Positions 21,340 through 57,184 of a stretch of DNA of 64,000 nucleotides are shown in pieces; positions within the stretch are counted from its first letter, which is position 1, and the number at the start of each line of letters is the position of its first letter. The DNA lies in assembly GCA_964564245.1 (NCBI GenBank), contig CAZMAK010000002.1:21028-85027 (forward strand), given 5' to 3'. The DNA comes from an uncultured Ectothiorhodospiraceae bacterium (GTDB lineage: Bacteria > Pseudomonadota > Gammaproteobacteria > UBA9214). The notes beneath the pieces were generated by a model, which worked only from the letters and a program-made list of their open reading frames with translations, did no database searches and was not told where the DNA came from. The position numbers and the translations under genes were made by a program.

Positions 21340-21374
21340 GTGCTCCCCCCAGGCAATGGATGCTGAATATTTCC

Positions 21375-23396: not shown

Positions 23397-23397
23397 G

Positions 23398-34718: not shown

Positions 34719-35498
34719 TCACACCAGCAGCTTGCGCCGCACCAGTGCCACGGCGATGACGTAGCTGACCAGGGCGAAGCCCAGCAGCACGGCCACGTCC
34801 AGCCACGGATGGGCCAGTTCGGTACCGGCCACCAGTCCGCGGGTGAGGTAGACCCCGTGGGTGAGCGGCAACAGCTGCACGAGACCATGCATGGTTTCCG
34901 GCAAGGTGTCGACCGGGTAGAACACGCCGCACAGGATGAACATCGGTGTCACCACCAGCACGAAGTAATAACTGAAAAAGTCATAGCTGCCGGCCAGTGC
35001 ACTCATGATCAGTGCCGGACCGGCGAAGCACAGTCCGATCAGGAACACCACCGGCAGTACCAGCAGGGCGTGCCAGTCGTGCACTACACCCAGCAGCGTG
35101 GCCACCAGCAGGATGGCGCTGCCGCTGAACAGCGCCTTGTTGGCGCACCACAGCATTTCGCCGGCCATGATGTCGTCGACCTCGAGCGGTGTGGCGAGGA
35201 TCGCCTCGTAGGTCTTCTGCGGCACCATCCGCGTGAACACCGAGTACATACCCTCGAAGCTGGCCGTGGTCATGGAGCTCGAGGCAATGATGCCGGTGGC
35301 CACGAACGTCAGGTACGGCAGGCCGGCCATCTCGCCGACGAAGTGACCCAGCCCGAAGCCCAGCCCCAGCAGGTAGATGACGGGTTCGCCGAAGTTCATC
35401 AGGATCGCCGGCACCAGCAGTTTACGCCAGACCAGGATGTTGCGCCGCCACACGTACAGGGCGCCGCGGCGGATGCGCGGCAGTCGCAGCGGGATCAT
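34719..35498 (-). CDS. ABC-2 type transporter permease
   Basis: Six predicted TM helices; ABC-2 family; start overlaps the upstream ATPase stop. Confidence 0.75.
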   Translation of the reverse strand: MIPLRLPRIRRGALYVWRRNILVWRKLLVPAILMNFGEPVIYLLGLGFGLGHFVGEMAGLPYLTFVATGIIASSSMTTASFEGMYSVFTRMVPQKTYEAILATPLEVDDIMAGEMLWCANKALFSGSAILLVATLLGVVHDWHALLVLPVVFLIGLCFAGPALIMSALAGSYDFFSYYFVLVVTPMFILCGVFYPVDTLPETMHGLVQLLPLTHGVYLTRGLVAGTELAHPWLDVAVLLGFALVSYVIAVALVRRKLLV

Positions 35499-36433
35499 CA
35501 GTCGCGCAGCTCCCGGCCGGTCAGGCGCAGGAACACATCTTCGAGTCCGGTGGGCCGGTGGATGTAGCGCAGGCGCGGCCGGTCCTTGAGCTGTCCGGTC
35601 AGTTCCGCGGGCCGGTGTGTATAGCAGTACAGGCTGCTGCCCATGCGTTCCAGCCGGCAGCCGGCGGCGCTGGCCAGCGCCTCGATGTCATCCGGGGCAC
35701 CGCGCACCTCGATCACCTCGGGCTCCACGTAGTGGCTGACCAGGTCGCGCGGCGCGCCCTGCGCGAGGATGCGCCCATGGTCCATGATCACCAGTTCGTC
35801 ACACAGGCGCTCGGCTTCTTCCATGTAATGCGTGGTCAGCAGCAGGGTCTTGCCGCTGTTCTTGAGCTCGTTGAGCCGTCCCCAGATGACGTGCCGGGCC
35901 TGCGGGTCCAGCCCGGTGGTCGGTTCGTCCAGCACCACCAGTTCCGGGTCGTTGATGAGGGCGCGCGCGATGGTAAGCCGCCGCTGCATGCCGCCGGACA
36001 GGGCGTCCGGACGGGAGTGGCGCCGGTCGGTGAGCGAGACGAAGTCGAGCAGCGCATCGATGCGGTTCGCCACCGCTGTGCGCGGCAGTCCGAAGAACGA
36101 GGCATAGATCTGCAGGTTCTCCTGCACGGTGAAATCGGGATCGAGGTTCTCGGCCTGCGGCACGATGCCGGTGCGGGCGCGGATGGCAGAGGCGTGTTCC
36201 TGCACCGGCAGGCCGAATACGGAGAGCGTGCCGCCGCTGACCGGTGTGAGTCCCATGGTCATGCGCAGCGTGGTGGTCTTCCCTGCCCCGTTCGGGCCGA
36301 GAAAACCGAAGCACTGGCCGGCCTGGATATCGAATTCGATGCCGTCGACGGCGGTGCGGCCGTCAAAGGACTTGGTCAGCCCGCGGGCGGAAATCAGTGG
36401 CTGGGCAGGTTGCAAATCGACGGCCGGTTGCAT
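35498..36433 (-). CDS. ABC transporter ATP-binding protein (pairs with the ABC-2 permease)
   Basis: Walker A GPNGAGKTT, signature LSGGMQRRL, Walker B LVVLDEPTTGLD. Confidence 0.85.
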   Translation of the reverse strand: MQPAVDLQPAQPLISARGLTKSFDGRTAVDGIEFDIQAGQCFGFLGPNGAGKTTTLRMTMGLTPVSGGTLSVFGLPVQEHASAIRARTGIVPQAENLDPDFTVQENLQIYASFFGLPRTAVANRIDALLDFVSLTDRRHSRPDALSGGMQRRLTIARALINDPELVVLDEPTTGLDPQARHVIWGRLNELKNSGKTLLLTTHYMEEAERLCDELVIMDHGRILAQGAPRDLVSHYVEPEVIEVRGAPDDIEALASAAGCRLERMGSSLYCYTHRPAELTGQLKDRPRLRYIHRPTGLEDVFLRLTGRELRD

Positions 36434-36524: not shown

Positions 36525-37460
36525 CTACGCCGGCAGGAAGTCGATCGGATAGGTAATGGTCACCTCGGTGACATCCTTGGCCCCGAAATTGAACATCTTC
36601 ACGCGGCTGGTGATGCTGGCGGCCAGTGCCGCGTCGTTCAGTTCACTGGAGACCACGCTGCACTGTGTCACCTTGCCGCTCGGGGCGATGGTGAGCTTCA
36701 GCACCACCTTGCCCTGCAGGGTCGGGTTGCTGCGCAGGGCACGGTTGTAGACGCCGTAGATCGAGCCCTTGTTGCGGTCGAACACCATCTGGATCTCCTC
36801 GATGCTGCGCCCGGCCGACCGGTCACCCTTGCCCTTGCCGCCGATGCGTGCGCCGGCCGCATTGCCGGCGGGGCTGTGCACCACGGTGGTGGAGCGCCCG
36901 GCCAGCGAGCCGCCGCCGGTGTTGCGGCTCAGGCTGGCGGTCCGGATGCCGCCACTGCCGCTGGTGGTGCCGGAGGTCAGGATCGCACGTTCGACCTTCG
37001 CCGCCTTGCCACCGGCCTGCGACAGGTTGGTGTTGCTGAAGTTGCGGGCGAGCGAGTTGTCACGCAGATCGGACAGGGCGTCGCTCATGGCGAGAATGCC
37101 GGATTTCTGTGCCTGCTCGCGGGCGCTGGGCTTCGGTACCACCGGCCTGGGCGGCGCCTTGACCACCTTTTTCACGACCGGCTTCGGCTCCTCGACCTTC
37201 TTCGGCAGGGGTTCCGGTTTCTTCTCGACCGGTTTCGGCGGCGGTGGCGGCTTGATGATCTCCTGTTCGAATATCACCTTCGCCAGCCGTTCCGGTTGTT
37301 CGGCCACCGGGTGCCGGATCTCCGGTAACGGCAACAGCGGGACCAGGATACCCAGCACGATCGCGGCCAGCAGGCTGTTGCGGACGATCCGCAGGAAGCG
37401 CAGGTCGTCGTCGTTCGCGACGCCCCAGTTCAGATCGAAGGTCAGCTGGATGGCCGACAT
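36525..37460 (-). CDS. TonB-like energy transducer (N-terminal TM, Pro/Lys-rich spacer, C-terminal TonB domain). Start trimmed to MSAIQL.
   Basis: KPPPPPKPVEKKPEPLPKKVEEPKP spacer; C-terminal GKVVLKLTIAPSGKV... Confidence 0.75.
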   Translation of the reverse strand: MSAIQLTFDLNWGVANDDDLRFLRIVRNSLLAAIVLGILVPLLPLPEIRHPVAEQPERLAKVIFEQEIIKPPPPPKPVEKKPEPLPKKVEEPKPVVKKVVKAPPRPVVPKPSAREQAQKSGILAMSDALSDLRDNSLARNFSNTNLSQAGGKAAKVERAILTSGTTSGSGGIRTASLSRNTGGGSLAGRSTTVVHSPAGNAAGARIGGKGKGDRSAGRSIEEIQMVFDRNKGSIYGVYNRALRSNPTLQGKVVLKLTIAPSGKVTQCSVVSSELNDAALAASITSRVKMFNFGAKDVTEVTITYPIDFLPA

Positions 37461-37461
37461 C

Positions 37462-37968
37462 TCAGCTTCCCTCCAGCGGCTTCTGCAGGACGGCCAGCGA
37501 AACACGCTGGTAGCCGGCACGGGTTACGGTTGCCATGACCTTCTTCAGTAACCGGAACGGGATCTCCCGGTCACCCATGATGGTTGCTTCCATGCGGACC
37601 GGCCGGGTTTCCGGCTGTTTCTGCCGGGCAGCGGCCAGCTCCTTTTCCAGCGCGGCCTGCAGGGTCCGGGAGGTGGTACCGGGATCCTTCAGGATGCGGT
37701 CGACCGATGCGACCACCTTGCCGTAGATCATGACATCCGTCGCATTGACCATGACGACCACGGTCTGGTGTGGCTGCTGTTCGGAGACCGACTCCGGCAG
37801 CCTGACCGATTTGTGGGTCGGCAGGATCTCCCCGTTGGAGGAATTCACCAGCAGGAAAAACACCAGAATGGTGAAGATATCCATCAGCGAGACGAGGTTG
37901 ATACCGAGCGTCCCCTTGCTGCGTTTGTGCTTGCGCTCCATACGTCGGGCGCGCCGTGACATCATCAT
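37462..37968 (-). CDS. ExbD/TolR biopolymer transport protein (second copy)
   Basis: INLVSLMDIFTILVFFLL TM plus ExbD fold. Confidence 0.85.
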   Translation of the reverse strand: MMMSRRARRMERKHKRSKGTLGINLVSLMDIFTILVFFLLVNSSNGEILPTHKSVRLPESVSEQQPHQTVVVMVNATDVMIYGKVVASVDRILKDPGTTSRTLQAALEKELAAARQKQPETRPVRMEATIMGDREIPFRLLKKVMATVTRAGYQRVSLAVLQKPLEGS

Positions 37969-38480
37969 TGGTTGGCAACCTTCACGCCCGGCGGGGCGTC
38001 TCCTATCGAGATTTCGGGGAACAGCTCCGCGCTCTGGAAGCCGTCCGTCGCCACTATCCTCGCCACACGTACGCGGTCCATGACCTGTACCAGTGTGTCG
38101 TAGGGGACGTCGGCCTCGAGCAGCAGGGTGGCGTTGAGCTTGTCGGGGAAGCGCGCCTTGATCTGCTGCAGCAGCTGCGAGAGCTGTTGGTAATCGTAGC
38201 CCGCAGGCGTCCGTGGCAGGCGCCTGATCAGGCCGCCACTGCGGTCTCCGACCTCGATGTCGCCGTCACGGACGATGATCTCGAGATCGAAATCCGGCTG
38301 CGGGACGTTCTGCTCCCGCGCAGCGGCGGCCGGCAGGTTCAGCTGCAGCACCGTGATGCGCGAGAATACCGCGGTGATCAGCAGAAACGGCACCAGTATC
38401 ACCATCAGGTTCATGAAGGCGGTGATATTGATGTCGGTGGACTGCCCTTCCAGCCGACGGCGTCTGAAGCGGTTTCTCAT
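37965..38480 (-). CDS. ExbD/TolR biopolymer transport protein (first copy)
   Basis: INITAFMNLMVILVPFLL TM plus ExbD fold; ATGA-type overlaps on both sides. Confidence 0.85.
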   Translation of the reverse strand: MRNRFRRRRLEGQSTDINITAFMNLMVILVPFLLITAVFSRITVLQLNLPAAAAREQNVPQPDFDLEIIVRDGDIEVGDRSGGLIRRLPRTPAGYDYQQLSQLLQQIKARFPDKLNATLLLEADVPYDTLVQVMDRVRVARIVATDGFQSAELFPEISIGDAPPGVKVANQ

Positions 38481-39130
38481 CCGGCCTTGGCCCCGCCGAC
38501 CTGGCTTTCGGTCAGGCTGTTGAGGAATTTCACCGATGCCATCTCCAGGCTGTCCACCAGCTGCGTGGTCTTGGTCTGCAGCACGGCGTAGATCAGCAGC
38601 AGGGGAATCGCAACCATCAGGCCGAACGCGGTGGTGTTCATGGCCACCGAGATACTGGCGGACAGCATGTCGGCCTTCTCGGACGGATTGGCCGACGCCA
38701 CGGCGGTAAATGCCTGGATCAGGCCGATGATGGTGCCCAGCAGACCCAGCAGCGTGGCGATGTTGGCAAACGTCGCCAGGTAGCCGGTCCGTTTCTCCAG
38801 GTTCGGCACCGTTTCCATCAGGCCCTCTTCCATGGCGATCTCGACATCGTCACGCCGGCGCGAGGTCCGGGCGCGACTCAGCCCGTAACTGAAGATGTGA
38901 CTGATCGCGGATTTCGATTTCTCGGTCAGCAGGGCGACCTGCAGCAGGTCGCCGGCGGCAAGGTGTGGCTGGATCTTTTTCCACAGGCGGTAGTTGCTGG
39001 CGCGGGCCACGCTGAGGTAAAGCCAGCGCTCGACTGCGATGGCCAGGCCGAGTGCAAGCACCACGACGATCGGATACATGAAAATGCCGCCGGACTGGAA
39101 GAATCCGACCACGGTATGGTAGAGGTCCAT
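38477..39130 (-). CDS. MotA/TolQ/ExbB proton-channel protein
   Basis: Three TM helices; TolQ/ExbB family. Confidence 0.85.
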   Translation of the reverse strand: MDLYHTVVGFFQSGGIFMYPIVVVLALGLAIAVERWLYLSVARASNYRLWKKIQPHLAAGDLLQVALLTEKSKSAISHIFSYGLSRARTSRRRDDVEIAMEEGLMETVPNLEKRTGYLATFANIATLLGLLGTIIGLIQAFTAVASANPSEKADMLSASISVAMNTTAFGLMVAIPLLLIYAVLQTKTTQLVDSLEMASVKFLNSLTESQVGGAKAG

Positions 39131-39231
39131 AGTTTTACTCCTGTTGCTTCCCCGTTGGATTACATCAATTACTGCGTGCTGTACGGCTAAATCGGCAGCG
39201 CCCCTGTCAAGTTCAATAAAGATAACCGCAG

Positions 39232-39546
39232 CTATTTGCGGGAACTGTGAACCGCTTCGTAGAATTCCAGCTCGCGCAGAAACACGTCACGATCGATGGG
39301 CGCAAGTGTCTCGTCGACCAGGCTGTTCAGCGGCCGGCCGGCCAGTTCACCGGTCTCGGCCGGCTTCCAGGGCACGATGTTCAGTGCCTTGGGAAGTTCC
39401 TGGTTGCCGGTGATGGTCGTGCCCTCCAGTTCCATCCGGTCGGCTGCCGGCAGCGGGCCGGCCGCGATACACAGGGACAGCAGACCACCTGCCAGGAAGC
39501 GACGGGAGCGGGTCACAACGGTGTTGCACGGATCGATGGCTTTCAT
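39232..39546 (-). CDS. Small secreted protein of unknown function in the ExbB/TonB/TPR operon. Start trimmed to MKAIDP.
   Basis: Signal peptide; coupled (4-nt overlap) to the upstream TPR lipoprotein gene. Confidence 0.5.
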   Translation of the reverse strand: MKAIDPCNTVVTRSRRFLAGGLLSLCIAAGPLPAADRMELEGTTITGNQELPKALNIVPWKPAETGELAGRPLNSLVDETLAPIDRDVFLRELEFYEAVHSSRK

Positions 39547-40160
39547 TTGCCGGCTCCTGCGGTCATCTTTTGCGGTGCCTGCAGCTGCTCCTGCAGGGCG
39601 GTGATCCACTGCTGCAATTGCGGGTCCGTGGAATGTGTCAGTTGCTGATAACGGGCATAGTGCGCCAGTGCCTGTGCGGGATCGGTCAGGTAACGGTCAT
39701 AGAGGATGGCCAGGTTCCAGTTGGCATCGGCATGGTCCGGATCGGCGGTCAGCGCCTGCTGCCAGGCGTCGGCGGCTTCCGCCAGCCGGTTGGCACGGCG
39801 GTACACCATGCCCAGCTGGTTCCATGCCTCGGCCTGTTTCGGGTCGATTTCCAGCGCATGTCTGAAATCGGTCTCGGCAGTCGCGGCATTGCCAAGCTGC
39901 ACGTGGGTAATCCCGAGATTGACCCAGGCACCCGGCAACCGGGGATCCTGTGCGGTGATGGCATCGAGCTGCGTGGCGGCTGCCTGCCAGTCACCGGTCT
40001 GCATCGAGTGGATGGCCGCCTGAAAGGCCGGTTCGAGCTCTTTCGGGCTGACCCGGGGGGATACCGCGTCACTGACCGGCGCCGGGGCATCCTGCTGCCG
40101 CGGCGGCGCGCTGGTACAGCCGGCCCCGAGCATGATCGACGCCAGCAGCAGTGCAGTCAT
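39543..40160 (-). CDS. TPR-repeat lipoprotein. Start trimmed to MTALLLASIMLGAGC.
   Basis: Lipobox LGAGC; at least 3 TPR units (AWNQLGMVYRRANRLAEAADAWQQAL...). Confidence 0.7.
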   Translation of the reverse strand: MTALLLASIMLGAGCTSAPPRQQDAPAPVSDAVSPRVSPKELEPAFQAAIHSMQTGDWQAAATQLDAITAQDPRLPGAWVNLGITHVQLGNAATAETDFRHALEIDPKQAEAWNQLGMVYRRANRLAEAADAWQQALTADPDHADANWNLAILYDRYLTDPAQALAHYARYQQLTHSTDPQLQQWITALQEQLQAPQKMTAGAGK

Positions 40161-40239
40161 TCCGGGTCGGGCGCAAACCGGTTTTCGGCCCCGGTCCGGA
40201 GCCGGGACCACCCGGTCGCGGTACCGGGTTCCGGCGTCG

Positions 40240-43026
40240 TCAGTAAAGGACGGCCACATAGGGGGCACCTCTCTCCTGTTTCGCGTACTTCGCCGGTACC
40301 AGTTCGGCCAGCGCCTGCAGGCTCTTGCCGATCCAGGCGTCATAGAGGCCCGATTGCAGCCGTTCTGCATTCGTTTCATGCAGACTGATAGCCTGCTCCT
40401 CGAACGGATAGGACTGGTCTTCCAGCAGGATGTTGTATTGCTCCAGTGCCTCGGCATCGAGGTTCTTCGGGCGTTCCGACTCCTGCAGTGCCGTGGCCAG
40501 CTGGCGGTACACCTGCGCAGTCTGGTAGGCGGCGGCGGTCGTGACCTCTGCCACACTGTACGCCGCCGCCTGCTCGTACTGCGCCAGGGTTTCCTGCATC
40601 AGGCGCTTTTTCAGCGCCAGGCTTTTCTTCAGGGGCAGACGCAGCGCAACGGCGCTGTAGCGGTCGTGTGCCCGGTCGGCCAGCTGCAGGAGCGCCGTGG
40701 CCGCCAGGTAACGCGTCCGGTCGGTGCGTTCCGCTCCGGCCTGCCGGTCAGCGCTGATGATCTCGTTGAGCCAGTGTTCCTGCGCGCGCGTGTCACCCTC
40801 CGCCAGGTACTGCCTGGCGATGTGGTGCATGGCCTCGATGGCGGGTTCGGCCGGACTCGGAAACTGCGTGAGGTAATAGCGGTAGACGTCGCCAGCCTGT
40901 TTCGCCGCACCGTTGTTGCGGTACAGCTCGGCGGCCTGCCACAGGGCATCCCGGCGTAACGTGGCATCGCCGGCGGCCCGGCCGATCCGTTCGAATTCCC
41001 GGGCCGCCTGCAGCGGCTGGCCCCCTTCCTGGTAGGCGGTCGCGAGCCGGCGTGTGACCTCGGCCTGGCGCGGATCGTCCGGGAACGCCGTACGGAACTC
41101 CTGCAGGCTGCTGGCGGCCGCCTTCCAGTTCTTCAGTTTCAGCAGGCCTGCCGCGGCGTCGTAATCCGCCGTGGCGACGATGCTGGCGCCCGGCGTGGCA
41201 GTACGTACCCGCTGGAAGTGCGCCACGGCCGCGGCCTCGTCGCCGCGCGCACGGGCCGCCTCACCCTGTTTGTAGATAGAGGCGGCAAGTTTCTCAACCA
41301 ACGCGGGTTTTTCCGGGGAATTCCCCGGTGTTCTGGCCAGGGTCTGCTGGTAGGCCTGCTCCGCCTGCAGGTAGTCACCGAGATCGAACCAGGCATGCGC
41401 CTGTACCGTCCAGCAGACCCGCTGCTGTTCGGCGGAGGCCCTCGTGCTGGACGTTACCTGCTTTGCCACCTGGATCGCGCGCGGGTTCTCATGCGCGGCC
41501 AGCAATTCCTCGGCGGACTTGCTCAGTACCGCCAGAGCCTGGGGGTGTTCCGGGAAGGTGGTGGCAAAACGCAGTGCATTGTTGAGCCCCTGCTCATGCC
41601 ATTGCGCACGTGCCGCGCCCTCCAGCAACGCCTCCTCCCTGGCATATGCCAGTACCGACGCGTAACCGGCCTCGGCGGCGTGCTCATGGCTGCCGTAGTC
41701 GTAGGCGGTATGGATATATTCCTGTGCGGCATCGCCGAAGTGGCCCGACTCGAACAGCAGTTCGGCCAGCAGGAAGTTCATGCCGGGGGCCTCGGCACTG
41801 TCACCAAACGAACCGAGAAAGCTGTGGTACCAGCGACTGGCCTCGGCGTAATCGGCGGCCTGCTTGCTGTGCTGTGCCTGTGCGTGGTAGTAGCGCGTCA
41901 GGTCGATCATGGTGCGCTTCAGGAAGCCGAGCACCTGTGTCGCCTCGGTCCTGTCATGATGTTTCCAGTACTCACCCTGCAGGTTGTAGCGATCGACGAA
42001 GGCCTTCTTGCTTTCCAGTACCAGGGTCGGGAACCCGCCGGACTGGTAGGCATCGATCACACGCATCTGGAATGCCGGTGCCTGCAGGTGCACCGGGTTG
42101 GCATCGACGAAGGCCTGGAAGGTCTGTGCCGCGTCGGTGTAACGCTCCTTGTCCAGGTAGAGCTCTCCCAACCGCTCGTATACCACGGCCTCGTAATCAC
42201 GGCTGCCCTGCTGACGAAACAATGCGGCGACGCTCTGCGGCCCCTCCTCGTACGAGAATGCCAGGCTCATGGCACGCAGGGTGTCGTCCACCCGTTCCTG
42301 TTCGGCACGGGACAACGGTTCCGGCGCGGTGCCGGCAGCACGGGTGAGCTTGCGGTCCAGCAAGGCCAGGAAGGTCGCATTGCTCTCGTCGTACAGACCC
42401 TGCTTGAACTCACTCCACCCCAGCTTGTAGAGCGATTGCTCGAAGAATGCACCCTGTGCGCCGGCCTTGACCACGGCGTGGTAGGCCTGCCCGGCCGCGC
42501 GGTAGTGCCGGCTGACGAACTGGATTTCCCCGATCCGGAACTGTGCTTCCTGACCATACCGGCTGTCCGGGTATTGCCCGACCAGGCGGGTCAACGTGGC
42601 GAGTGCCGGTTCCGGTTCCCCGCCCAGTTCATACGCACGCGCCAGCTGATAGAGCACGGCGTCGTTGTCCGGCCGGTCCGGGTAGGTCTCCAGTACCTGC
42701 CGGTACAGGCGAATGGAGTCCTGTACCTGCTGCGGTACCGGGGGTGCGTCATCGCCCGTGGATGCCGCCGGCATGGCCTCCGCCTCCAGGTTGATGTCGG
42801 CCAGCCGGCGCATGGCCTGCGGTCTTGCCGCAGTCCGGTCACCGCTTTCGAGGAAACTGCGATAGGCATTCATGGCCTGCTGTTCGCTGGCCACCAGTGG
42901 CTGATCCTCGATGTGTGGGGGGCGTGTGCCGAGATCCGCTATGGTCGGAGCCTCGTCCCCGTGCATCAGCGAACACCCGGCCAGCCCGGCCAGCAGCACG
43001 AAACACAGGTTGTCCAGCCGCTTCAC
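40240..43026 (-). CDS. Large TPR-repeat lipoprotein (928 aa)
   Basis: Lipobox LAGCS; many TPR-like helical repeats; ATGA overlap with the upstream TPR gene. Confidence 0.8.
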   Translation of the reverse strand: MKRLDNLCFVLLAGLAGCSLMHGDEAPTIADLGTRPPHIEDQPLVASEQQAMNAYRSFLESGDRTAARPQAMRRLADINLEAEAMPAASTGDDAPPVPQQVQDSIRLYRQVLETYPDRPDNDAVLYQLARAYELGGEPEPALATLTRLVGQYPDSRYGQEAQFRIGEIQFVSRHYRAAGQAYHAVVKAGAQGAFFEQSLYKLGWSEFKQGLYDESNATFLALLDRKLTRAAGTAPEPLSRAEQERVDDTLRAMSLAFSYEEGPQSVAALFRQQGSRDYEAVVYERLGELYLDKERYTDAAQTFQAFVDANPVHLQAPAFQMRVIDAYQSGGFPTLVLESKKAFVDRYNLQGEYWKHHDRTEATQVLGFLKRTMIDLTRYYHAQAQHSKQAADYAEASRWYHSFLGSFGDSAEAPGMNFLLAELLFESGHFGDAAQEYIHTAYDYGSHEHAAEAGYASVLAYAREEALLEGAARAQWHEQGLNNALRFATTFPEHPQALAVLSKSAEELLAAHENPRAIQVAKQVTSSTRASAEQQRVCWTVQAHAWFDLGDYLQAEQAYQQTLARTPGNSPEKPALVEKLAASIYKQGEAARARGDEAAAVAHFQRVRTATPGASIVATADYDAAAGLLKLKNWKAAASSLQEFRTAFPDDPRQAEVTRRLATAYQEGGQPLQAAREFERIGRAAGDATLRRDALWQAAELYRNNGAAKQAGDVYRYYLTQFPSPAEPAIEAMHHIARQYLAEGDTRAQEHWLNEIISADRQAGAERTDRTRYLAATALLQLADRAHDRYSAVALRLPLKKSLALKKRLMQETLAQYEQAAAYSVAEVTTAAAYQTAQVYRQLATALQESERPKNLDAEALEQYNILLEDQSYPFEEQAISLHETNAERLQSGLYDAWIGKSLQALAELVPAKYAKQERGAPYVAVLY

Positions 43027-44903
43027 GGCGTCCCTCCCTTGCTCACATGCAGGGCGCTGTCGTAGGTCTGCGCCAGTGCAAAGCGGGCCTGCACCGTGTA
43101 GGTGTCGATGCGTTTCTTCTGCCGTTCCAGTTCGTCGACGGCCAGCTGCTGCAACTGTGCGCCCTCTGCCAGCCGGGCCCGGTCGGTCCTGGCCAGCAGG
43201 GCCTGAATGGTCATGCGCCCGGTACGGATCCGGTTCGAGAAGTCGCGGAATTCCTCCGGGGTATCACTGCGCGCACTGGCCAGTTCGTCGAGTTTCTGCT
43301 GCGACTGCCCGAGCAGCTTCGCGAGCTCCTTCAGGCCGCGTTTTGCCTGCCACAGGCGTGACCGGAAATCCGTGCTCAGTTGCCAGCGCAGGACACCCTC
43401 GAGCAGCCGTTGCCGTTCCCGCAGGTTGGCGGTTCGCTTCGAATCCGGCAGCCGGTCGAGGCGGGCCTTGATGGATTGCAGCTTCTGCCACTGCTGCAGC
43501 TCGGTGGCGTTGGCCAGCGCCATCACGTCATTGCCGGTATCGGCCTGGCGTACCCGGTAGGCAAGCGTCTCGTAGCGGTTCTTCAGTGCCGCCAGGTTTG
43601 CACTCTTCAGTCCCCGCTCCGCCGCGGGACTGCGTTCGGCAAAGCGTGCCTTGCGGGCCGCCAGCATGTCATCGTAGGCATCCATGCTCGCTGCCCAGCG
43701 TTGCAGGTTATTGCGCAGCAGCAGCAGGTCCCGGTAGTTCTTCACGGCTTCCTGGAATTCGTGGGCCGCCATCAGGGTCAGCTGGTAACGCAGTGCCGGG
43801 GACTGGGTGTCAAGCGTGAGCTGCTGCAACCAGCCGGTACCGGTACGCAGATCCTGTTGCTGAAGAATATCCAGCAACTCACCGTTCCTGATTGATTTTA
43901 TGGAGTCATCCAGCTTTCCTTTCTCGCCCTGCAACAGGCTGATTGCATCGTTGTACTGCGCCACGGCGCGCCCGCGCAGCTGCATCCGCGTCAGGGCGTA
44001 CGGCACGGCCAGCAGGGCCTCCTGTACCGCCGGGTCGGTGGCGTCGCGCTGGCCGAGTTCGGTCCAGGGCAACAGTGCGTGATCGAACGCGCGGTTATTG
44101 GCATCGGCCCAGCCGGCGCCGAGCAGCGCCTTGTTGGAGTACGGCCCCTGCAGGCGGACGCGCTCCAGCGTGGCGCGTGACAGCTTGTCTTCGCCGTGTT
44201 GCAGATAGCTGTACCCGAGTGCGAGGTTGGCCTTGTCACGCAGGGTACGCTGCTCCTCGTTCTCGCTATCCATGCTGCCGATGGCGGCCAGGGTCTGCGC
44301 GCCGGCATCCAGCTGGCCGTTGCGGATCTGGGCCACACCGAGGTTGAAGGCCAGGTAGGGGGTCCATGCCCCGGCCTTGTGTGCGGTCTCGATCTGCCGG
44401 ATGGCATCCGTATTTCTGCCCAGCTGCAGCAGCATCAGGCTGCCCAGCAAGGCGCTTTCCGCACGGGTTGCCTGGCTCATCTCGCCACCGACCTGGCCGA
44501 GGGCCTTGAGCGCGGCCTGCGGATCCCCGCGCTCGTAGGAAATCTTCGCGAGGTAGTACCAGGCGCGGTTGCGCGTATCCGTGTCGCTGTGCCCTGCCAG
44601 CAGCTGCTCGAAGATGCGGGTTGCCTCGTTGCGCAGGCCGTAGGACAGGTCCAGGCCGCCCAGCAGCAGTTCCGCCTCGTCGGCATGATGCGGCAGTGCA
44701 TGCTGCGACTTCGCCACCTGCAGACGCACGATGCTGTTGAACCAGTCCTGCTGGTAGTAGTAGAACAGCGCCTCCCCGTACTGCAGGTCAAGGACGCTGG
44801 AGGGCCTGGCCGCTGCGCAGGAAGCCGTGCCCGACCAGAGCAGCAGCAGGCAGCACGTGAGCTGCCTGGTGCGCTGCAACAGTGGATGCCTGCCGGGTTT
44901 CAT
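43023..44903 (-). CDS. TPR-repeat protein with signal peptide (about 626 aa). Start trimmed to MKPGRH.
   Basis: Signal peptide CCLLLLWSGTASCAAA; TPR repeats and C-terminal coiled coil. Confidence 0.75.
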   Translation of the reverse strand: MKPGRHPLLQRTRQLTCCLLLLWSGTASCAAARPSSVLDLQYGEALFYYYQQDWFNSIVRLQVAKSQHALPHHADEAELLLGGLDLSYGLRNEATRIFEQLLAGHSDTDTRNRAWYYLAKISYERGDPQAALKALGQVGGEMSQATRAESALLGSLMLLQLGRNTDAIRQIETAHKAGAWTPYLAFNLGVAQIRNGQLDAGAQTLAAIGSMDSENEEQRTLRDKANLALGYSYLQHGEDKLSRATLERVRLQGPYSNKALLGAGWADANNRAFDHALLPWTELGQRDATDPAVQEALLAVPYALTRMQLRGRAVAQYNDAISLLQGEKGKLDDSIKSIRNGELLDILQQQDLRTGTGWLQQLTLDTQSPALRYQLTLMAAHEFQEAVKNYRDLLLLRNNLQRWAASMDAYDDMLAARKARFAERSPAAERGLKSANLAALKNRYETLAYRVRQADTGNDVMALANATELQQWQKLQSIKARLDRLPDSKRTANLRERQRLLEGVLRWQLSTDFRSRLWQAKRGLKELAKLLGQSQQKLDELASARSDTPEEFRDFSNRIRTGRMTIQALLARTDRARLAEGAQLQQLAVDELERQKKRIDTYTVQARFALAQTYDSALHVSKGGTP

Positions 44904-44926
44904 TGCATCCTGCCGGGATACGGGAG

Positions 44927-45478
44927 TTATTCCCATTCCTGGATGCTGAAGTCGGGTTGCTCGGTGGACGGGTTATCGACGATCTTCAACTCCACGAACC
45001 GCGCCCCCAGTCCCTTCTCGACGCTGACCGTGGCACCGCGCCGGTAGTCACGGCCATTGGGCCCCTTGCCGGTGTAGAAGGCGACCAGTTCATGGGAACC
45101 TGTCTTGAGGTTGCCCATGTACAGGCGCTGGACACCGCCGCGCTGCAGGGCCTCGATCTCGCGCGCGGTGTAAAGATAGTTGCTGACAACGTCGCCATCG
45201 ATCTTCAGTTGCACGGAATCCAGGCTGAAAAACTTGCCGACATCGAGCGAGACAAAGACCGCCAGCTGGGTACTGGCCGGGTACAGCAGGTCTTCTTCCA
45301 GCACGAACAGGTCACGGTTCAGTGCGATCACTTCCTGCTTGAGTGACTGGATATCGCCATCCAGCGTGGCCGCCTTGCCGGGGGCAGGTTCCGCGGCGGA
45401 GCTGACGGTCTGCACCAGCAGCAGCACGGTGCCCGCTACCAGTCGGATGATGCGTAAGGTGACAGGGTTGGTTGACAT
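44927..45478 (-). CDS. Secreted coiled-coil protein of unknown function (first gene of the TPR/ExbBD/TonB operon)
   Basis: Signal peptide; coiled-coil segment LDGDIQSLKQEVIALNRDLFVLEE. Confidence 0.55.
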   Translation of the reverse strand: MSTNPVTLRIIRLVAGTVLLLVQTVSSAAEPAPGKAATLDGDIQSLKQEVIALNRDLFVLEEDLLYPASTQLAVFVSLDVGKFFSLDSVQLKIDGDVVSNYLYTAREIEALQRGGVQRLYMGNLKTGSHELVAFYTGKGPNGRDYRRGATVSVEKGLGARFVELKIVDNPSTEQPDFSIQEWE

Positions 45479-45704: not shown

Positions 45705-46703
45705 CTATTGCTTTGCCGGTTCGAGCCCGTCCGAGTAGTGCAGCCTGCCCTCGTTGTCGACCAGGATCGCCTCTGTGTCCGGCAGGGAGTTGATCAGTTG
45801 CAGCCCCTTTTCCACGCCCAGGACGAAGACACTGGTGGACAATGCATCCGTGTCGGTGGCGTGGCCGGCGATGATGCTGGCACTGTGCAGCCGGCGTGCC
45901 GAGTCGCCGGTGCCGGGATCGATGATGTGGTGATAGCGCACCCCGTTTTCCTCGAAGAAACGCTCGTAGTCGCCGGAAGTGGAGATGGCGGCATTTTCCA
46001 GCGGTACAACACTGACCAGACCGTCGTGGTTGCGTGGATCGCGAATACCGACATTCCAGGGATGGTCGCGGTGGTTGCCGATCACCCGGCTGTCACCGCC
46101 GGCACTGACCAGTGCGTCCTGCACACCGGCCTGCAGCAGCAGATCGATACAGCGGTCGACGGCGTAGCCCTTGGCGATACCGCCAAGGTCGATGCGGACC
46201 CCCTTGTGCAGGAAGTGCACGGTGGAGTGTGCGGCATCGAGCTCGACAAAATGCCAGTTGATGTCCGGTACGGTGGCGGCCAGCTGGGCGCGGCTCGGGT
46301 GCCTGCCCTGGCGAAAGTCATACAGGTAGCCGGCGCTGGCGTAGGTGATATCAAATGCACCGTGGGTAATTTCCGAGTACTCCAGCGCCCTGTGGATCAG
46401 CCGGAACAGTTCCGGACTGACCGGTACCGGCTGCTGCGCGGCGAGACGGTTGACACTGGAGAGTTCGCTGTCCGGTTTCCAGGTGCTCATCAGGGTATCG
46501 ATGCGGCGCATTTCTGCCATCACCCTGTCGGCCAGCCCCTCCCCGCGCGTGCTGTCGTCGGTCCACAGTTCGACGCTGACCGAGGTGCCCATGATGGCGG
46601 CATCCCGGTGCAGCCAGCCGGCACCGGCGCCTGGCGACAGCAGGCAGGCCAGCAACAGGATCGGCAAACGGCAGGAACGGCGCATGGGCCGATTATCGGC
46701 CAA
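45705..46703 (-). CDS. apbE: FAD:protein FMN transferase (ApbE/Ftp)
   Basis: Signal/lipobox N-terminus; ApbE motifs AIMGTSVSVELW, IDLGGIAKGYAVD. Confidence 0.85.
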   Translation of the reverse strand: MADNRPMRRSCRLPILLLACLLSPGAGAGWLHRDAAIMGTSVSVELWTDDSTRGEGLADRVMAEMRRIDTLMSTWKPDSELSSVNRLAAQQPVPVSPELFRLIHRALEYSEITHGAFDITYASAGYLYDFRQGRHPSRAQLAATVPDINWHFVELDAAHSTVHFLHKGVRIDLGGIAKGYAVDRCIDLLLQAGVQDALVSAGGDSRVIGNHRDHPWNVGIRDPRNHDGLVSVVPLENAAISTSGDYERFFEENGVRYHHIIDPGTGDSARRLHSASIIAGHATDTDALSTSVFVLGVEKGLQLINSLPDTEAILVDNEGRLHYSDGLEPAKQ

Positions 46704-46728: not shown

Positions 46729-48315
46729 TCAGATGGTGCCGCTGACGACCGGGTTGAAGGCGGTGAGACTGTCCTGCATGGCCGCGTTGCCGAGGCCGTG
46801 GCCAGGGAACAGCGTGGAGAAGTTCCCCTGCTCGCCGTGCAGGGCCATGTAGTTGAGGATCACGGTCTGCGCCAGCAGGTTGACCTGGAGGGCGGCCGGT
46901 GTGGCGCTGGTCTCGACCGAGGCATCCGGACGCATCCAGCCGATCTGCTGGTGCCGCGCCTGCGCCACGGCATCCGCACCCAGCAACAGCGGGCGTGAGC
47001 CGGGATTGTACACCAGGAAGAACGAGCTGGCGGTGGACGAGTTGTCGCCGGTCCACACCCCCTTGCCGCCGCCTGCAGCACTGTTATCGATCATGCCATT
47101 ACTGGCAAGCGAGCCGTCGCTGAAGACGTAGATCATGATGGGCACCCCGACGCGTGCAGCGTATTCCAGGCAGGCACCCATGCAGCGGCCGGCACGCAGA
47201 TCGCGCAGCTCGCCGGTGGCGCGGTCGCCGGTATGGTAGTCAAAGCCACCCATGGAGATGGTGCCGGCACCGGCAAAGCCGTTCACTACCATCTTCATCA
47301 CCGACGCGGTCTTGCGGAATTCCGAGTCGTTATCGAACTCCGCCTGGCTGAAGATGCCGGTGGCGCCGACGATGTCGGGGTCCAGTGCCGGGTTCAGTGA
47401 GGACGGATCACCGAAGCGGTCGGCGATATCGGCCGCCTTGACGTAACCGCAACGCACCAGGTCCTTGATGACGGCATCGGCCGACACCCTGGTGTTGACG
47501 TTGTCGAGTTTCATCTTGCTGATCCGCTCGATGGACTCCATCACGGCGACGGCATCCTGCTGGGACAGCACGCCGATCAGCTGGCCGGTATCGACCATCC
47601 CGGTCACGTCCGAGGGGCGGTCCACCTTGGTCGGGCGCAGCGTCGGGTCGACCATCATGGCCGGTGCCATGGAGTTACCCCCGGATTCCGAGCTCTGCGA
47701 TCCGATCAGGGTCAGCAGGCTGCCGTCCGCACCGGCGCGTGCAATGCCGTACATCGGGTTGTGCGGGTTGTTGCTGGTGTCGTTGTCGGATCGGGCCGGG
47801 ATCACCGCACCGTTGATATCTGCGCTGCGTGCACCGGCCTTTTCGGTGATGCCCTGCAGCATGGCGCTGCTGGCATGGAACGCAAGCCCGAAGTCGCTGT
47901 TGGTGTAGCTGAGACCGGTTACCGGATCGATGGCGGACGGGATCATGTCGCCGGGCAGTCCCAGCTTGCTGTAGCCCTGTGTGCTCAGAAAATCGAGCTG
48001 CCCGCCCTGCTGCCCGACCAGCACGTTGGAACCGGCAATGTTGGCACCACCGGCCAGGTCGAAGCAGATGAACGGGATCTTGCCGGCGCCCAGCGACTTG
48101 ATCCCGCAGGATGCCTTGAGGGCGCTGATGTCTGAAGACAGGGCGGCCGCCGCCTGGCGTGGACTGGCAAACAGCCCGAACAGGGTCGGTGCGGTCACCA
48201 TCCCCATGCCGGCGATCAGTCCCTGCCCGAGGAATTCACGTCGTGTCACCGGACGGCCGTGGCTGTTCAGGCGCAGCGGCTCGTTCAGGTCACGGAATTT
48301 ACGGTTTCTGGCCAT
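46729..48315 (-). CDS. Tat-exported protein of unknown function (DUF1501/DUF1552-like partner of CxxCH proteins). Start trimmed to MARNRK.
   Basis: Twin-arginine motif TRREFLGQGLIAG; FICFDLAGGAN and GGFDYHTGDRA resemble the alkaline-phosphatase-clan DUF1501 family; 25 nt upstream of apbE. Confidence 0.6.
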   Translation of the reverse strand: MARNRKFRDLNEPLRLNSHGRPVTRREFLGQGLIAGMGMVTAPTLFGLFASPRQAAAALSSDISALKASCGIKSLGAGKIPFICFDLAGGANIAGSNVLVGQQGGQLDFLSTQGYSKLGLPGDMIPSAIDPVTGLSYTNSDFGLAFHASSAMLQGITEKAGARSADINGAVIPARSDNDTSNNPHNPMYGIARAGADGSLLTLIGSQSSESGGNSMAPAMMVDPTLRPTKVDRPSDVTGMVDTGQLIGVLSQQDAVAVMESIERISKMKLDNVNTRVSADAVIKDLVRCGYVKAADIADRFGDPSSLNPALDPDIVGATGIFSQAEFDNDSEFRKTASVMKMVVNGFAGAGTISMGGFDYHTGDRATGELRDLRAGRCMGACLEYAARVGVPIMIYVFSDGSLASNGMIDNSAAGGGKGVWTGDNSSTASSFFLVYNPGSRPLLLGADAVAQARHQQIGWMRPDASVETSATPAALQVNLLAQTVILNYMALHGEQGNFSTLFPGHGLGNAAMQDSLTAFNPVVSGTI

Positions 48316-48371
48316 GCATCGTTCCTCGGTCTCTGTCCTGTTCGTTACACATTCGCCGCTGTCACTCTCGA

Positions 48372-50912
48372 CTATTGCACCAGCATGGCCGCACTGCCCA
48401 GCATGGCCGCACAGGTCGCCTTCACGATCTGTTCCGAACGTACGCTGGTGGCACAGGTCGGACTCGCACCACTCGCACAGGCCGTCAGGGTCTGGATCAG
48501 GGACTCCAGTTCGGTCGTGGTGGCGGCCGGGTCCGGCTGTACCGTCAGCCCGGTATTGAATACATGATCCAGCAGTGGCTGGATCACCAGGTTGCGCTTG
48601 GCCGGGCTGTCGAATGCCGTATCGGCCGTCTCCGGGGGCAGCCCGCTGGCGAAGAATCCCGGGAAGTAGGCCTCGCGGGTGATGCTGCCCTGGTTGTCGA
48701 CCAGGGCACTGCAATACTCGATGGCCAGCTGCGCGATCGCCATCTGCTGCGCGGACAGGAAGCCGTCGATGCTTTCCACTGTCGGCAGCTGCTGCTTGAT
48801 GGTCGTGTAGACGTTCTTCACGCCGCTCTGTTCGCGACTGACGCCGGTGATTGCCGCCATGCTGGCGTCGATCTCGTCGAACGTGCGGATGCCGATATCG
48901 GAGGCCGGCGGCAGGTCCGGCGGCGCGGCCGGTGCCAGCGGGGCTGCTTCGGTAACGACATGGGTATCATTGCCCAGCGTCTCGAAGGTCAGGAAGAACT
49001 CGTCGTAATCCGGCCCCTTCTCCAGTGCGATGACGGTACCGAGCGGAGACAGTACCTGTCCGGTACCCGGCGTATAGAGCGCTGCACTGATACTCGTGTC
49101 CAGGTTGCGGTAGGCCTGGCCGACCGCGGCCTCCTTGCCGTTGATGCCGATGCGCATGCCGGACAGCGGGATGTTGTCGGGCGTCACGGCCGGATCGAGT
49201 ACGATGAAACGCGGCTTGTTGAACAGGTAGCTGTAGCTGTCGAACTGGCTGACCTCGAACAGCACATAGCTGTCCGCGATGCCGGTGTGTGCGGAGACAT
49301 TGAACAGCACGAAGAACTTCTCGCCGACTCCGACACTGTAGTTCTGCTGGATCTGTTCCGGTGTCAGGGCACGATTGTGGATGGCCACCATGCGCAGCTT
49401 GCCCTGCCACTGGCGGTCACCCGACACCTCGTTGCCGAGCACGAAGGCGAAGCTGTCATCCCAGTCGTTCAGATTACCGCCCGGGACCGGGTCCATGTCT
49501 CCGGTGAACACGCCGTTGACGTAGACGCGCCGGCCGTTGACCGGGTCGTAGGTCACCACCACGTGCTGCAGTGTGGCCTGCAGGTCCTCGTCCGCATCGG
49601 CGGTCTTCAGTTCCGGCATGCCGTTCGCGTCGGTCGTGCTGCTGCGCTGCAGGAAGTCGTAGCTGTACTTGGTCTGGCCCAGCGTGAAATTGCGTGCGTC
49701 CGTACCTGCCGAGTAACTGACGATCCTGGCCGGTCCTTCCTGCGAGATGTTGGCCGGTACCACCCAGGCCTCGATGCTGTACTCGCCGGTGGCGGTGATC
49801 AGGTCGTGCAGCTTGCGACTGCTGGTGGTGGTGGCCTGTGCCTTGCCGCTGGTGATGTCGATACCCCAGCCGCCGACCCAGGTCACGCCACCGCTCAGGG
49901 TCAGGTGCATTTCTGGCGACACACCACTGGTGTCATAGGCAATATTGCCGCTGCCCTCCTTGAACTGGTAGAGCGCGATCACGTTGTCATCGATGCGGTT
50001 GCCACCGCTGGCGACAATGCCGTCCACCAGCTTCATGGCCTTGCTGGTCACCAGCGCGGGGTTGATCTGTGTCGGGCTGATTGCACCGGCGAACTGGCTG
50101 ATGGCGGCCTCCATGATATCCGCCGAGGCGGCACAGTCGGAGCTGCCGGTATTGTTCGGGTCCCAGCAGTTGTGAAACTCGTTGCGCAGACGCACCACGA
50201 AGCGCGAATTGGCCGGATTGTCCAGGTCCATCTTGGATTTGGCATTCTCGTAGGCCGAATCCGGATCGGCAGTGGCGAAGAACGGGGCCTGCGGGGTACT
50301 GGACGAGTCGGTATGGCAACCCGAGCAGTGGGCAGTCAGGATCGGGTGGACCGTGCTGGCAAACAGCCCGGAATCCGCCGGGAAGCTCTTGCTGTCGCCC
50401 GGGTCGACCAGCACCGGTGCGGTCAGCGCGACCACGGTGCCGCCACTGGTCACGCCACCTGCCCAGGCATTGATATAGGCGGTAATGGTGTCGGCGCAGG
50501 CCTGCCAGTCCGCGGGCGTCGTACCCAGCCAGCAGTTGTGACCGCTGGCCACCTTGGTGACCATGGTTGAGCTGGCCGGGCTGTCGAGATTGATGACCGT
50601 GTTGGCTTCCGCGTAGGCCAGGTTGATGTCGTCACTGCGCACGAAGGCCGGCGTCTGGCCACCGGCGACGTGACAGCTGCCGCAGCGGTTGGTCGGAACG
50701 AGCTTGTCCCAGACATTCAGCTTGAAGGCCTGGATGTCGGCGGTCACGGGTGCGGGTCCGCTGTAGTTCGAGGCGTCACTGACGGTAACCGACGGCGCCT
50801 GGTTGGTCGTGGTGTCCGCGCCACCGCCACAGGCGCCGAGCGCCAGCGTGACCAGCAGCAGGGCCAGTACACGGACCCTCGTGTGCAGCATTTGCCTGAT
50901 GGATTCGCTCAT
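48372..50912 (-). CDS. Secreted lipoprotein with two CxxCH...HNCW cytochrome-c-like modules and a LamG-like (concanavalin) domain
   Basis: Lipobox LALGACGGG; CGSCH...GHNCW and CSGCH...FHNCW repeats; LamG-like segment (GEYSIEAWVVPANISQE); Planctomycete-cytochrome-type architecture. Confidence 0.7.
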   Translation of the reverse strand: MSESIRQMLHTRVRVLALLLVTLALGACGGGADTTTNQAPSVTVSDASNYSGPAPVTADIQAFKLNVWDKLVPTNRCGSCHVAGGQTPAFVRSDDINLAYAEANTVINLDSPASSTMVTKVASGHNCWLGTTPADWQACADTITAYINAWAGGVTSGGTVVALTAPVLVDPGDSKSFPADSGLFASTVHPILTAHCSGCHTDSSSTPQAPFFATADPDSAYENAKSKMDLDNPANSRFVVRLRNEFHNCWDPNNTGSSDCAASADIMEAAISQFAGAISPTQINPALVTSKAMKLVDGIVASGGNRIDDNVIALYQFKEGSGNIAYDTSGVSPEMHLTLSGGVTWVGGWGIDITSGKAQATTTSSRKLHDLITATGEYSIEAWVVPANISQEGPARIVSYSAGTDARNFTLGQTKYSYDFLQRSSTTDANGMPELKTADADEDLQATLQHVVVTYDPVNGRRVYVNGVFTGDMDPVPGGNLNDWDDSFAFVLGNEVSGDRQWQGKLRMVAIHNRALTPEQIQQNYSVGVGEKFFVLFNVSAHTGIADSYVLFEVSQFDSYSYLFNKPRFIVLDPAVTPDNIPLSGMRIGINGKEAAVGQAYRNLDTSISAALYTPGTGQVLSPLGTVIALEKGPDYDEFFLTFETLGNDTHVVTEAAPLAPAAPPDLPPASDIGIRTFDEIDASMAAITGVSREQSGVKNVYTTIKQQLPTVESIDGFLSAQQMAIAQLAIEYCSALVDNQGSITREAYFPGFFASGLPPETADTAFDSPAKRNLVIQPLLDHVFNTGLTVQPDPAATTTELESLIQTLTACASGASPTCATSVRSEQIVKATCAAMLGSAAMLVQ

Positions 50913-50915
50913 GGC

Positions 50916-52189: not shown

Positions 52190-52351
52190 AATCCTGATGG
52201 CTGGATGAGAAAAATTCTGTGACCCACCTCGCGGTTCGGTACTGCCGGTATCCCTATAGTGACTGTGCGTATTTGCAGCCACGGCAACTGTGCGGCCGGT
52301 CACAACCGGCTGCACCGTTATCAGGTTTTCCATCCGGAGCGCCGATTACCC

Positions 52352-55730: not shown

Positions 55731-55735
55731 GACCG

Positions 55736-56371: not shown

Positions 56372-56381
56372 GGAGGCTCAC

Positions 56382-56954: not shown

Positions 56955-57184
56955 CGGGAATGAAACTGCAATTGCCGCTGCTGCTGTGCGCCGGGCTGCT
57001 GCTGGGAGGTTGCAGCCACCTTGAGCCGTGGGTGAAGCCGTATGAGCGCGCCAACCTGGCCGATCCGGTCATGAGCGCGGACCGGGACCCGGTATCCAGC
57101 GCCTATATCGCCCATGTGTACCCGGTACGCGAGGCGGCGCGCGGCGCCGCGGGCGGGCACGGAGGCGGCTGTGGCTGTAACTAG
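56951..57184 (+). CDS. DUF4266 small lipoprotein (C-terminal GGGCGCN)
   Basis: Lipobox LLGGCS; C-terminal GHGGGCGCN; ATGA overlap with tlpA-like gene; typical neighbour of DUF3570. Confidence 0.65.
   Translation: MTGMKLQLPLLLCAGLLLGGCSHLEPWVKPYERANLADPVMSADRDPVSSAYIAHVYPVREAARGAAGGHGGGCGCN

Follow-up and report, generated by a model that had tools for sequence, protein, structure and literature searches.

In the account of Luciano et al. (2011, PLoS Genet, PMC3169522), to whose main text and tables all our comparisons with that study refer, the gliding (Agl-Glt) and spore-coat (Agl-Nfs) machineries of Myxococcus descend from a core complex of Gamma- and Betaproteobacteria, comprising the Group B genes gltC, gltD, gltE, gltG, aglR, aglQ and aglS together with one extra gene. 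These core genes are grouped in one region in non-Deltaproteobacteria and in Geobacter, where their function is not known, and they are described as insufficient for motility and present in non-gliders. Here we analyse a nine-gene operon at positions 36525-45478 of a 64,000-nucleotide (nt) stretch of DNA from an uncultured Ectothiorhodospiraceae bacterium (contig CAZMAK010000002.1), the whole of which we call the window. The operon very probably encodes a stand-alone Agl-Glt core complex, that is, a Tol/Ton-like envelope machine driven by the proton motive force (pmf); systems of this kind have been known since 2011, and the locus adds no new kind to them.

Table S3 of PMC3169522 gives the core genes in the order GltC-like, GltD-like, GltE-like, a skipped locus tag, AglR, AglQ, AglS and GltG, in the genera Thioalkalivibrio, Marinobacter, Hahella, Saccharophagus, Cellvibrio and Teredinibacter, in Shewanella frigidimarina and in Methylibium (loci Tgr7_0536-0543, Maqu_1595-1602, HCH_02626-02634, Sde_2954-2961, CJA_3313-3319, TERTU_3740-3747, Sfri_1223-1230 and Mpe_A1224 onward). 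The proteins listed there are 550-692 amino acids (aa) long for MXAN_2541-like (GltC), 922-1016 for MXAN_4870-like (GltD), 162-263 for MXAN_4869-like (GltE), 205-272 for MXAN_6862-like (AglR), 168-188 for MXAN_6861-like (AglQ), 162-185 for MXAN_6860-like (AglS) and 321-334, with one of 535, for MXAN_4867-like (GltG) entries. The second to ninth genes of the window operon encode proteins of 637, 928, 205, 104, 217, 171, 168 and 311 aa and lie in a single cluster in the same order, the 104-aa protein taking the place of the skipped locus tag. The window, which lies outside the Table S3 genomes, therefore shares with the published core complex its gene order, its single co-directional cluster and its protein sizes, bar a slightly shorter GltG-like protein, as well as a short TonB-like GltG that lacks an FHA domain. 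Open reading frame (ORF) listing and Pfam/NCBIfam domain scans agree on the nine genes, all on the minus strand and with the domains that a first-pass annotation of the window had given them, several of them containing tetratricopeptide repeats (TPRs):

44927-45478, minus strand: g1, 183 aa, signal peptide, no Pfam or NCBIfam family
43023-44936, minus strand: g2, 637 aa, or 626 aa if started at Met12, signal peptide, TPR protein
40240-43026, minus strand: g3, 928 aa, many TPRs, lipobox LAGC
39543-40160, minus strand: g4, 205 aa, TPR protein, lipobox GAGC
39232-39546, minus strand: g5, 104 aa, signal peptide, no family match
38477-39130, minus strand: g6, 217 aa, MotA_ExbB
37965-38480, minus strand: g7, 171 aa, ExbD
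37462-37968, minus strand: g8, 168 aa, ExbD
36525-37460, minus strand: g9, 311 aa, TonB_C

There are 4-nt overlaps at four junctions (g2/g3, g4/g5, g6/g7 and g7/g8), one fewer than the five first reported. g1 and g2 overlap by 10 nt, or stand 23 nt apart if g2 encodes the 626-aa form, and the remaining gaps measure 1 nt (g8/g9), 79 nt (g3/g4) and 101 nt (g5/g6). The 311-aa start of g9, for which the longest ORF would give 331 aa, yields a product exactly equal to the public protein P0001. Public gene calls on an identical metagenome contig agree with the nine genes, g4 being 238 aa long there. A promoter scan found no sigma-70-like site, and terminator-like hairpins were not enriched (9, as against 6.8 in shuffled sequence). 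That the block is genuine, rather than a fortuitous series of ORFs, is shown by related loci, nearly all of which, on contigs that are long enough, have the same nine genes in the same order. Its GC content is uniform with that of the rest of the window.

These relatives were gathered by scanning GTDB species genomes with an alignment of the GltD-like protein g3, which has relatives in at least 391 of them; the best 80 of these loci were compared. Most of the 80 come from uncultured Gammaproteobacteria (Steroidobacteraceae, Thiogranum, Thiohalobacter, Woeseiaceae), and the remainder from Burkholderiales (Rhizobacter, Aquabacterium, Caldimonas), one Zetaproteobacteria metagenome-assembled genome (MAG) and one Nitrospirota MAG; no species of Table S3 is among them. 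By tblastn of the window proteins, all nine genes keep their collinear arrangement in about 70 of the 80 loci, wherever contigs are long enough. Counted gene by gene over 82 loci, g1 is found in 71, the GltC-like gene in 76, the GltD-like in 81, the GltE-like in 74, g5 in 74, the AglR-like in 73, the AglQ-like in 71, the AglS-like in 70 and the GltG-like in 67. The closest relative among the best 80 (CAVYIJ010000001.1, GltD identity 65%) has the same 13-gene arrangement as the window. Its record is titled 'uncultured Halobacteria archaeon', a label that looks wrong, as lipoproteins and a Tol-like motor indicate a Gram-negative bacterium.

The TonB/TolA-type transducer g9 scores 75.8 bits on NF033768 (AgmX/PglI, the GltG/GltJ C-terminal domain), well over the cut-off of 40, and 49 bits on gliding_GltG through its C-terminal domain alone, while it barely passes the generic TonB models (TonB_C 28.9 bits; TIGR01352 tonB_Cterm 30.1 bits, cut-off 27.1). 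Sequence and AlphaFold2 model agree on a layout of some 20-27 cytoplasmic residues, one transmembrane helix, a Pro/Lys-rich spacer and a C-terminal domain, which in Foldseek comparison of the model resembles the C-terminal domains of HasB, TonB, FusB and TolA. Between the spacer and this domain lies a strikingly conserved extended segment (approximately residues 113-200). Neither the Pfam and NCBIfam scans nor the AlphaFold2 model contains an FHA domain. In the AlphaFold model published for M. xanthus (PMC11761067), an unstructured GltG segment wraps GltD, whose N-terminus is the docking site of the GltG C-terminal domain.

With the channel protein g6 as query, HMMER was run in full over 1.84 billion cluster representatives and returned a compact, high-scoring subfamily of 163 representatives at E <=1e-30, one of them from a Bacteriovoracaceae MAG (Bdellovibrionota). 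The contig of this MAG, L085, carries a Glt cluster with an OMP_myx_plus barrel, GltC, a small protein, MotA_ExbB, two ExbD proteins, a protein of 954 aa, a TPR lipoprotein and a GltG with an FHA domain, and is anchored by NCBIfam matches to GltC (NF033756, 99 bits), GltG (NF033760, 125 bits; NF033768, 63.5 bits) and OMP_myx_plus. The window proteins and their orthologues then served to build profiles, which were scored on the L085 and E. coli proteins. The g6 profile gives 195.6 bits on L085 AglR, 48.8 on E. coli TolQ and 42.5 on E. coli ExbB. The g7 profile gives 72.3 bits on the first L085 ExbD, 26.2 on the second and 37.3 on E. coli ExbD; that of g8 gives 71.2 bits on the second, 21.7 on the first and 37.6 on E. 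coli ExbD. By these scores g6, g7 and g8 are one-to-one orthologues of L085 AglR and of its first and second ExbD, and as each ExbD paralogue scores best on its own L085 counterpart, the duplication predates the split between core-type and Glt-type systems. The curated models also place the motor far from its better known relatives. g6 (PF01618, 102.6 bits) fails the equivalogs for TolQ (TIGR02796, 72.4 bits, cut-off 221) and ExbB (TIGR02797, 49.6 bits, cut-off 206.2), and g7 and g8 (both PF02472) fail those for TolR (TIGR02801, 30.3 and 30.9 bits, cut-off 127.3) and ExbD (TIGR02803, 30.1 and 16.2 bits, cut-off 152.95). In line with the profile scores, which favour L085, these proteins do not group with canonical iron-uptake ExbBD, a grouping that would have counted against the first-pass reading, and canonical TonB/ExbBD or Tol-Pal membership is rejected on the curated cut-offs and the comparative profile scores.

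Residues lining the predicted proton path are unevenly kept between the two ExbD-like subunits. The channel threonines of g6 that match TolQ T145 and T178 are retained in all 72 AglR-like sequences, and at the proton-relay column (TolR D23, ExbD D25) g8 has Asp, as do 67 of 67 members of the AglS-like group. g7 has Asn at this column; its group is divided between Asn (38 of 70) and Asp (32 of 70), the Steroidobacteraceae AglQ-like proteins having Asp. The equivalent residue of M. xanthus AglQ, D28, is essential: the aglQ D28N change abolished proton conductance and paralysed the machine (PMC3858216). A natural Asn in the AglQ-like subunit argues for one that would work only together with the AglS-like subunit, and the pairing of an AglQ-like Asn with an AglS-like Asp leads us to propose an axle in which the two subunits are obligatorily paired and only one site can be protonated. 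For M. xanthus, a 2022 review (PMC9389320) called it an open question whether AglQ and AglS assemble as homo- or heterodimers.

Among the TPR proteins, g3 is the one with a specific counterpart. It aligns with the 954-aa protein in the GltD position of L085 with an hhalign probability of 86.4% over 304 collinear columns, as against less than 1% for other TPR proteins; this bears out the suggested GltD similarity, while the GltE similarity suggested alongside it for the TPR proteins comes down to generic TPR matches. Cys18 of the g3 lipobox is invariant among 16 close homologues, and the protein passes TIGR02795 tol_pal_ybgF (109.1 bits, cut-off 90.1) over several stretches. Such YbgF/CpoB modules fit a role as partner of a TolA-like protein, and by analogy with the Myxococcus machinery g3 is presumed to be a GltD-like periplasmic pillar that binds GltG. 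Core-family membership is well supported for the motor, the GltG-like transducer and the GltD-like protein, and the GltC-like and GltE-like proteins are placed by position and size. The likeness to the Agl-Glt core put forward in the first-pass annotation holds up in the fit of gene order and sizes to Table S3, in the passage of g9 over the NF033768 cut-off and in a motor closer to the L085 Glt cluster.

The two small secreted proteins belong to the conserved block as well. g1 had been described as a secreted coiled-coil protein; its signal peptide upholds the first half of this description, but the protein is not mainly coiled coil, since the AlphaFold2 model (pLDDT 80.7) shows a signal helix and one long helix (residues 33-65) followed by an immunoglobulin/transthyretin-like beta-sandwich (residues 71-182). 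The model has no informative structural neighbour. Identity is 63-85% among the matches listed, and the family is named 'AraC family transcriptional regulator' at NCBI, a name that does not fit, as neither sequence nor model shows a DNA-binding regulator. Conserved as the first gene of the block, g1 is possibly a new, ninth member. g5, with the invariant motif GN.E.PK.L.IVPW ... P.D...F.R, occupies the gap in locus tags between GltE and AglR in Table S3 and probably represents the 'additional gene' of the core complex as published. Its position is also that of gltF in the Myxococcus G1 cluster; homology of g5 to GltF was dropped, despite position and a motif likeness by eye, at an hhalign probability of 1.2% with the L085 protein in the GltF position.

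Several observations weigh against assigning the operon to the Agl-Glt core. g2 has TPR_16 and TPR_19 matches in an N-terminal TPR region, followed by a long helical C-terminal half, and fits GltC in position and size (MXAN_2541-like entries); it has no NCBIfam gliding_GltC match at E <5, where L085 GltC scores 99 bits, and its hhalign comparison with Bdellovibrionota GltC (16%) is non-specific, so that the identification of g2 as GltC by sequence was dropped. g4 likewise has the position and size of the MXAN_4869-like entries and strong generic TPR matches, but scores 34.6 bits on gliding_GltE (cut-off 225), is outranked there by other TPR families and gives non-specific hhalign results; for the GltC-like g2 and the GltE-like g4 the similarity is that of TPRs in general. 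A lipobox is found in 31 of 79 GltD-like and 35 of 73 GltE-like orthologues, figures that depend on rough start calls. The link to Myxococcus is made through NCBIfam models, one Bdellovibrionota cluster and a published table; a weak hairpin lies in the 101-nt g5/g6 gap and the nine-gene transcript is a predicted one; and we infer the stoichiometry, the protein contacts and the output of the machine.

The operon is flanked by two adenosine triphosphate-binding cassette (ABC) transporter genes downstream and by an island of redox and outer membrane (OM) genes upstream:

34719-36433, minus strand: ABC ATPase (NodI_C) and ABC-2 permease, NodIJ/YadGH-like, 91 nt downstream of g9
45705-46703, minus strand: ApbE, upstream of g1 and co-directional with it
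46729-48330, minus strand: 533-aa protein with a twin-arginine translocation (Tat) signal, no family
48372-50912, minus strand: 846-aa lipoprotein with two CXXCH motifs and LamG
50916-52109, minus strand: 397-aa CXXCH protein with DUF1585/PSD2
52259-54934, plus strand: 891-aa two-haem lipoprotein with HZS_alpha (hydrazine synthase alpha middle), weak PD40 and two CXXCH motifs
54957-55730, plus strand: SH3 and beta-barrel OM protein, OMP_myx_plus 42 bits (under cut-off)
55700-56371, plus strand: OMP_myx_plus barrel (TIGR04565, 172.7 bits), about 10 kb from the operon
56196-56954, plus strand: TlpA-like redoxin, a member of the island
about 56960-57180, plus strand: DUF4266-like small lipoprotein with CXC, ending in GCGCN
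57114-58331, plus strand: DUF3570 protein with two SGAS motifs

A set of ApbE, DUF3570, DUF4266 and thioredoxin genes is a known flavinylation cluster whose role is not known (Meheust et al. 2021, PMC8238504). In the window this cluster is complete but split by an inversion, while relatives such as L064 keep it co-directional upstream of g1, in an array that runs from an HZS_alpha-like cytochrome through SH3-OMP, OMP_myx_plus, TlpA, DUF3570 and ApbE to g1. For 51 loci the contig extends more than 6.5 kb beyond the start of the block at g1. In 42 of these, subsets of the cytochrome, ApbE/DUF3570/TlpA and OMP_myx_plus genes stand immediately upstream, and two arrangements of them occur. In about 30 loci, from Steroidobacteraceae and the clade of the window, the trio at 46729-52109 immediately precedes the core block, and an HZS_alpha-like homologue heads a co-directional array upstream of the block in 12 loci. 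The trio looks like a Planctomycete-style cytochrome pairing. The [ST]GA[ST] flavinylation motif is present in none of the nine operon proteins, and ApbE therefore does not appear to act on them. The ABC-2 exporter does adjoin the operon, as first noted, but it is not a conserved neighbour: it stands beside the block in only 3-5 loci, those of the closest relatives, and was rejected as a part of the system, the two ABC genes being probably unrelated housekeeping genes. Elsewhere in the window, a 576-aa multi-TPR protein adjoins a 616-aa FG-GAP/ASPIC-UnbV repeat protein at 60395-63972 (minus strand), and a beta-oxidation cluster of acyl-CoA dehydrogenase, thiolase, FadB-like bifunctional enzyme and AMP-binding ligase, ordinary metabolism, lies at 19531-27140 (minus strand).

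Other readings of the nine genes deserve to be weighed. Their Pfam content (MotA_ExbB, two ExbD and TonB_C), the score of g9 just over the TIGR01352 cut-off and the likeness of its modelled C-terminal domain to TonB, HasB and FusB would suit a TonB-ExbB-ExbD variant in which ExbD has been duplicated, energising a TonB-dependent transporter encoded elsewhere for the uptake of iron or another nutrient, and TonB systems with two ExbD genes do exist, for example in Xanthomonas. We find this most improbable: the ExbB and ExbD equivalogs are far under cut-off, the proteins scored 3-4 times higher on the Glt-cluster motor than on E. coli ExbBD, the C-terminal domain of g9 suits the GltG/GltJ model much better than the generic TonB models, and in about 70 genomes the system is always accompanied by three TPR and two small secreted proteins. 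In agreement with the first-pass annotation, the scanned window ORFs of at least 575 aa included no TonB-dependent receptor, and no Fur box was found at up to 3 mismatches in the 64 kb. What the operon shares with TonB-ExbBD systems, including TonB2/TtpC, are the protein superfamilies and the transmission of force to the outer membrane; it differs in having no receptor partner and no TtpC-like or DUF3450-type partner, in the GltG/GltJ subtype of its C-terminal domain and in ExbB/ExbD-like proteins outside the canonical families, so that the separation from classic TonB-ExbBD and TonB2 systems proposed earlier is upheld both by the failed equivalog cut-offs and by the far higher scores on the Glt-cluster motor. 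A second, divergent Tol-Pal-like system for envelope upkeep (OM tethering or constriction, lipid homeostasis) would fit the overall logic, which is that of an inner-membrane motor, a TolA-like transducer and a periplasmic TPR partner; TolQ is the top named family for g6, and g3 passes the YbgF/CpoB model. The two systems have in common a pmf motor from the TolQ/TolR family and an elongated transducer that starts with a transmembrane helix near its N-terminus and ends in a domain like those of TolA and TonB; both also have a partner with TPR modules of CpoB/YbgF type. Yet the TolQ and TolR cut-offs were far from reached, neither the operon nor the rest of the window yielded a TolB or Pal, and the partners are the Glt-type set, with two different TolR-like subunits, three TPR and two small secreted proteins. 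We consider such a system unlikely; the idea bears on the output of the machine more than on its identity, and overlaps with the core-complex reading.

A functional gliding or surface-trafficking machine, like the Agl-Glt machinery of Myxococcus or Bdellovibrio, would account for the homology of the motor and of the GltD-like and GltG-like proteins and for an OMP_myx_plus barrel about 10 kb away. The shared parts are AglR with two TolR-like subunits, the GltG/GltJ-type C-terminal domain, the GltD-like TPR pillar and a TPR lipoprotein in the GltE position. The window system differs, however, in that it has neither the cytoplasmic platform nor an FHA domain in its GltG and lacks the Group A proteins (GltA, B, F, H, I, J and K, and CglB), and no counterpart of GltF, GltH, GltI, GltJ, GltK, CglB, AglZ or MglA was identified in the operon. 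The transmembrane helix of g9 starts at about residue 20, as against residues 330-348 in M. xanthus (PMC11761067), and the Myxococcales GltD and GltE are much longer, at about 1190-1200 and 450-455 aa. With core genes that are insufficient for motility and that occur in non-gliders (PMC3169522), we give this reading hardly any credence. The last alternative concerns output and is compatible with a core-complex identity, namely that the complex energises or positions the neighbouring extracytoplasmic redox island. Such genes stand directly upstream in 42 of 51 loci, including the single co-directional array of L064, the linkage recurs in at least three lineages with differing gene orders, and M. 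xanthus GltC docks onto OM barrels (PMC11761067). On the other side, nine loci, including Woeseiaceae and Nitrospirota, are without the island; many of the positive loci come from a single order, so that the counts are not independent; and the window barrel and the barrel in the GltB position of L085, although of the same family, show no significant pairwise similarity. Moreover, ApbE-DUF3570 clusters are common, and the part of PMC8238504 available to us mentions no Tol-like motor, its supplement text containing none of the ExbB/ExbD Pfam accessions for DUF3570 clusters. The link, neither universal nor phylogenetically corrected, is suggestive, and we regard the redox island as a rather doubtful target.

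With the operon taken as a stand-alone Agl-Glt core complex, a working model can be drawn up (coordinates and strands as above). The co-encoded AglR-like channel and its two non-equivalent TolR/ExbD-like subunits would form an inner-membrane motor of the 5:2 type, by analogy with ExbBD, TolQR and AglRQS. The Asp/Asn asymmetry of these subunits suggests an axle in the form of an obligate AglQ-like/AglS-like heterodimer with one protonatable site. Driven by the pmf, the motor would act, again by analogy, on the transmembrane helix of the GltG-like protein, whose spacer, extended segment and C-terminal domain may reach through the periplasm to a docking site on the GltD-like lipoprotein, much as in the M. 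xanthus model (PMC11761067). The GltE-like and GltC-like proteins, g1 and g5 would complete the scaffold near the outer membrane. Instead of TonB-box-dependent nutrient import, the output would be mechanical work on an OM-associated target, for which the best candidates in this lineage may be the neighbouring OM barrels and redox proteins.

Relative to the main text and tables of PMC3169522, our analysis adds the conserved ninth gene g1, the Asn of the AglQ-like protein and the synteny with a redox and OM-barrel island. The core complex is the evolutionary seed of both gliding and spore-coat assembly in Myxococcus and has been an envelope machine without an assigned function since 2011, and the locus gives it a fuller parts list of nine conserved genes, g1 included. 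The natural Asp-to-Asn change bears on the question of the AglQ/AglS axle (PMC9389320), in favour of a heteromeric one. More speculatively, and at what we consider a low probability, the core complex of this lineage and of many related ones may be the mechanical partner of an OM redox assembly made up of a flavinylated DUF3570 barrel, OMP_myx_plus barrels of the GltA/B family and haem lipoproteins, with a 'half-dead' heterodimeric stator (AglQ-like Asn, AglS-like Asp) that positions, gates or assembles extracytoplasmic electron-transfer proteins. The recurrent redox and OM-protein linkage points to targets that can be tested in carriers amenable to cultivation, for example Rhizobacter and Aquabacterium. 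If the partnership with redox proteins were true, it would be the first function for the core complex, and would mean that barrels of the GltA/B family were tied to the core already outside Myxococcota and Bdellovibrionota.

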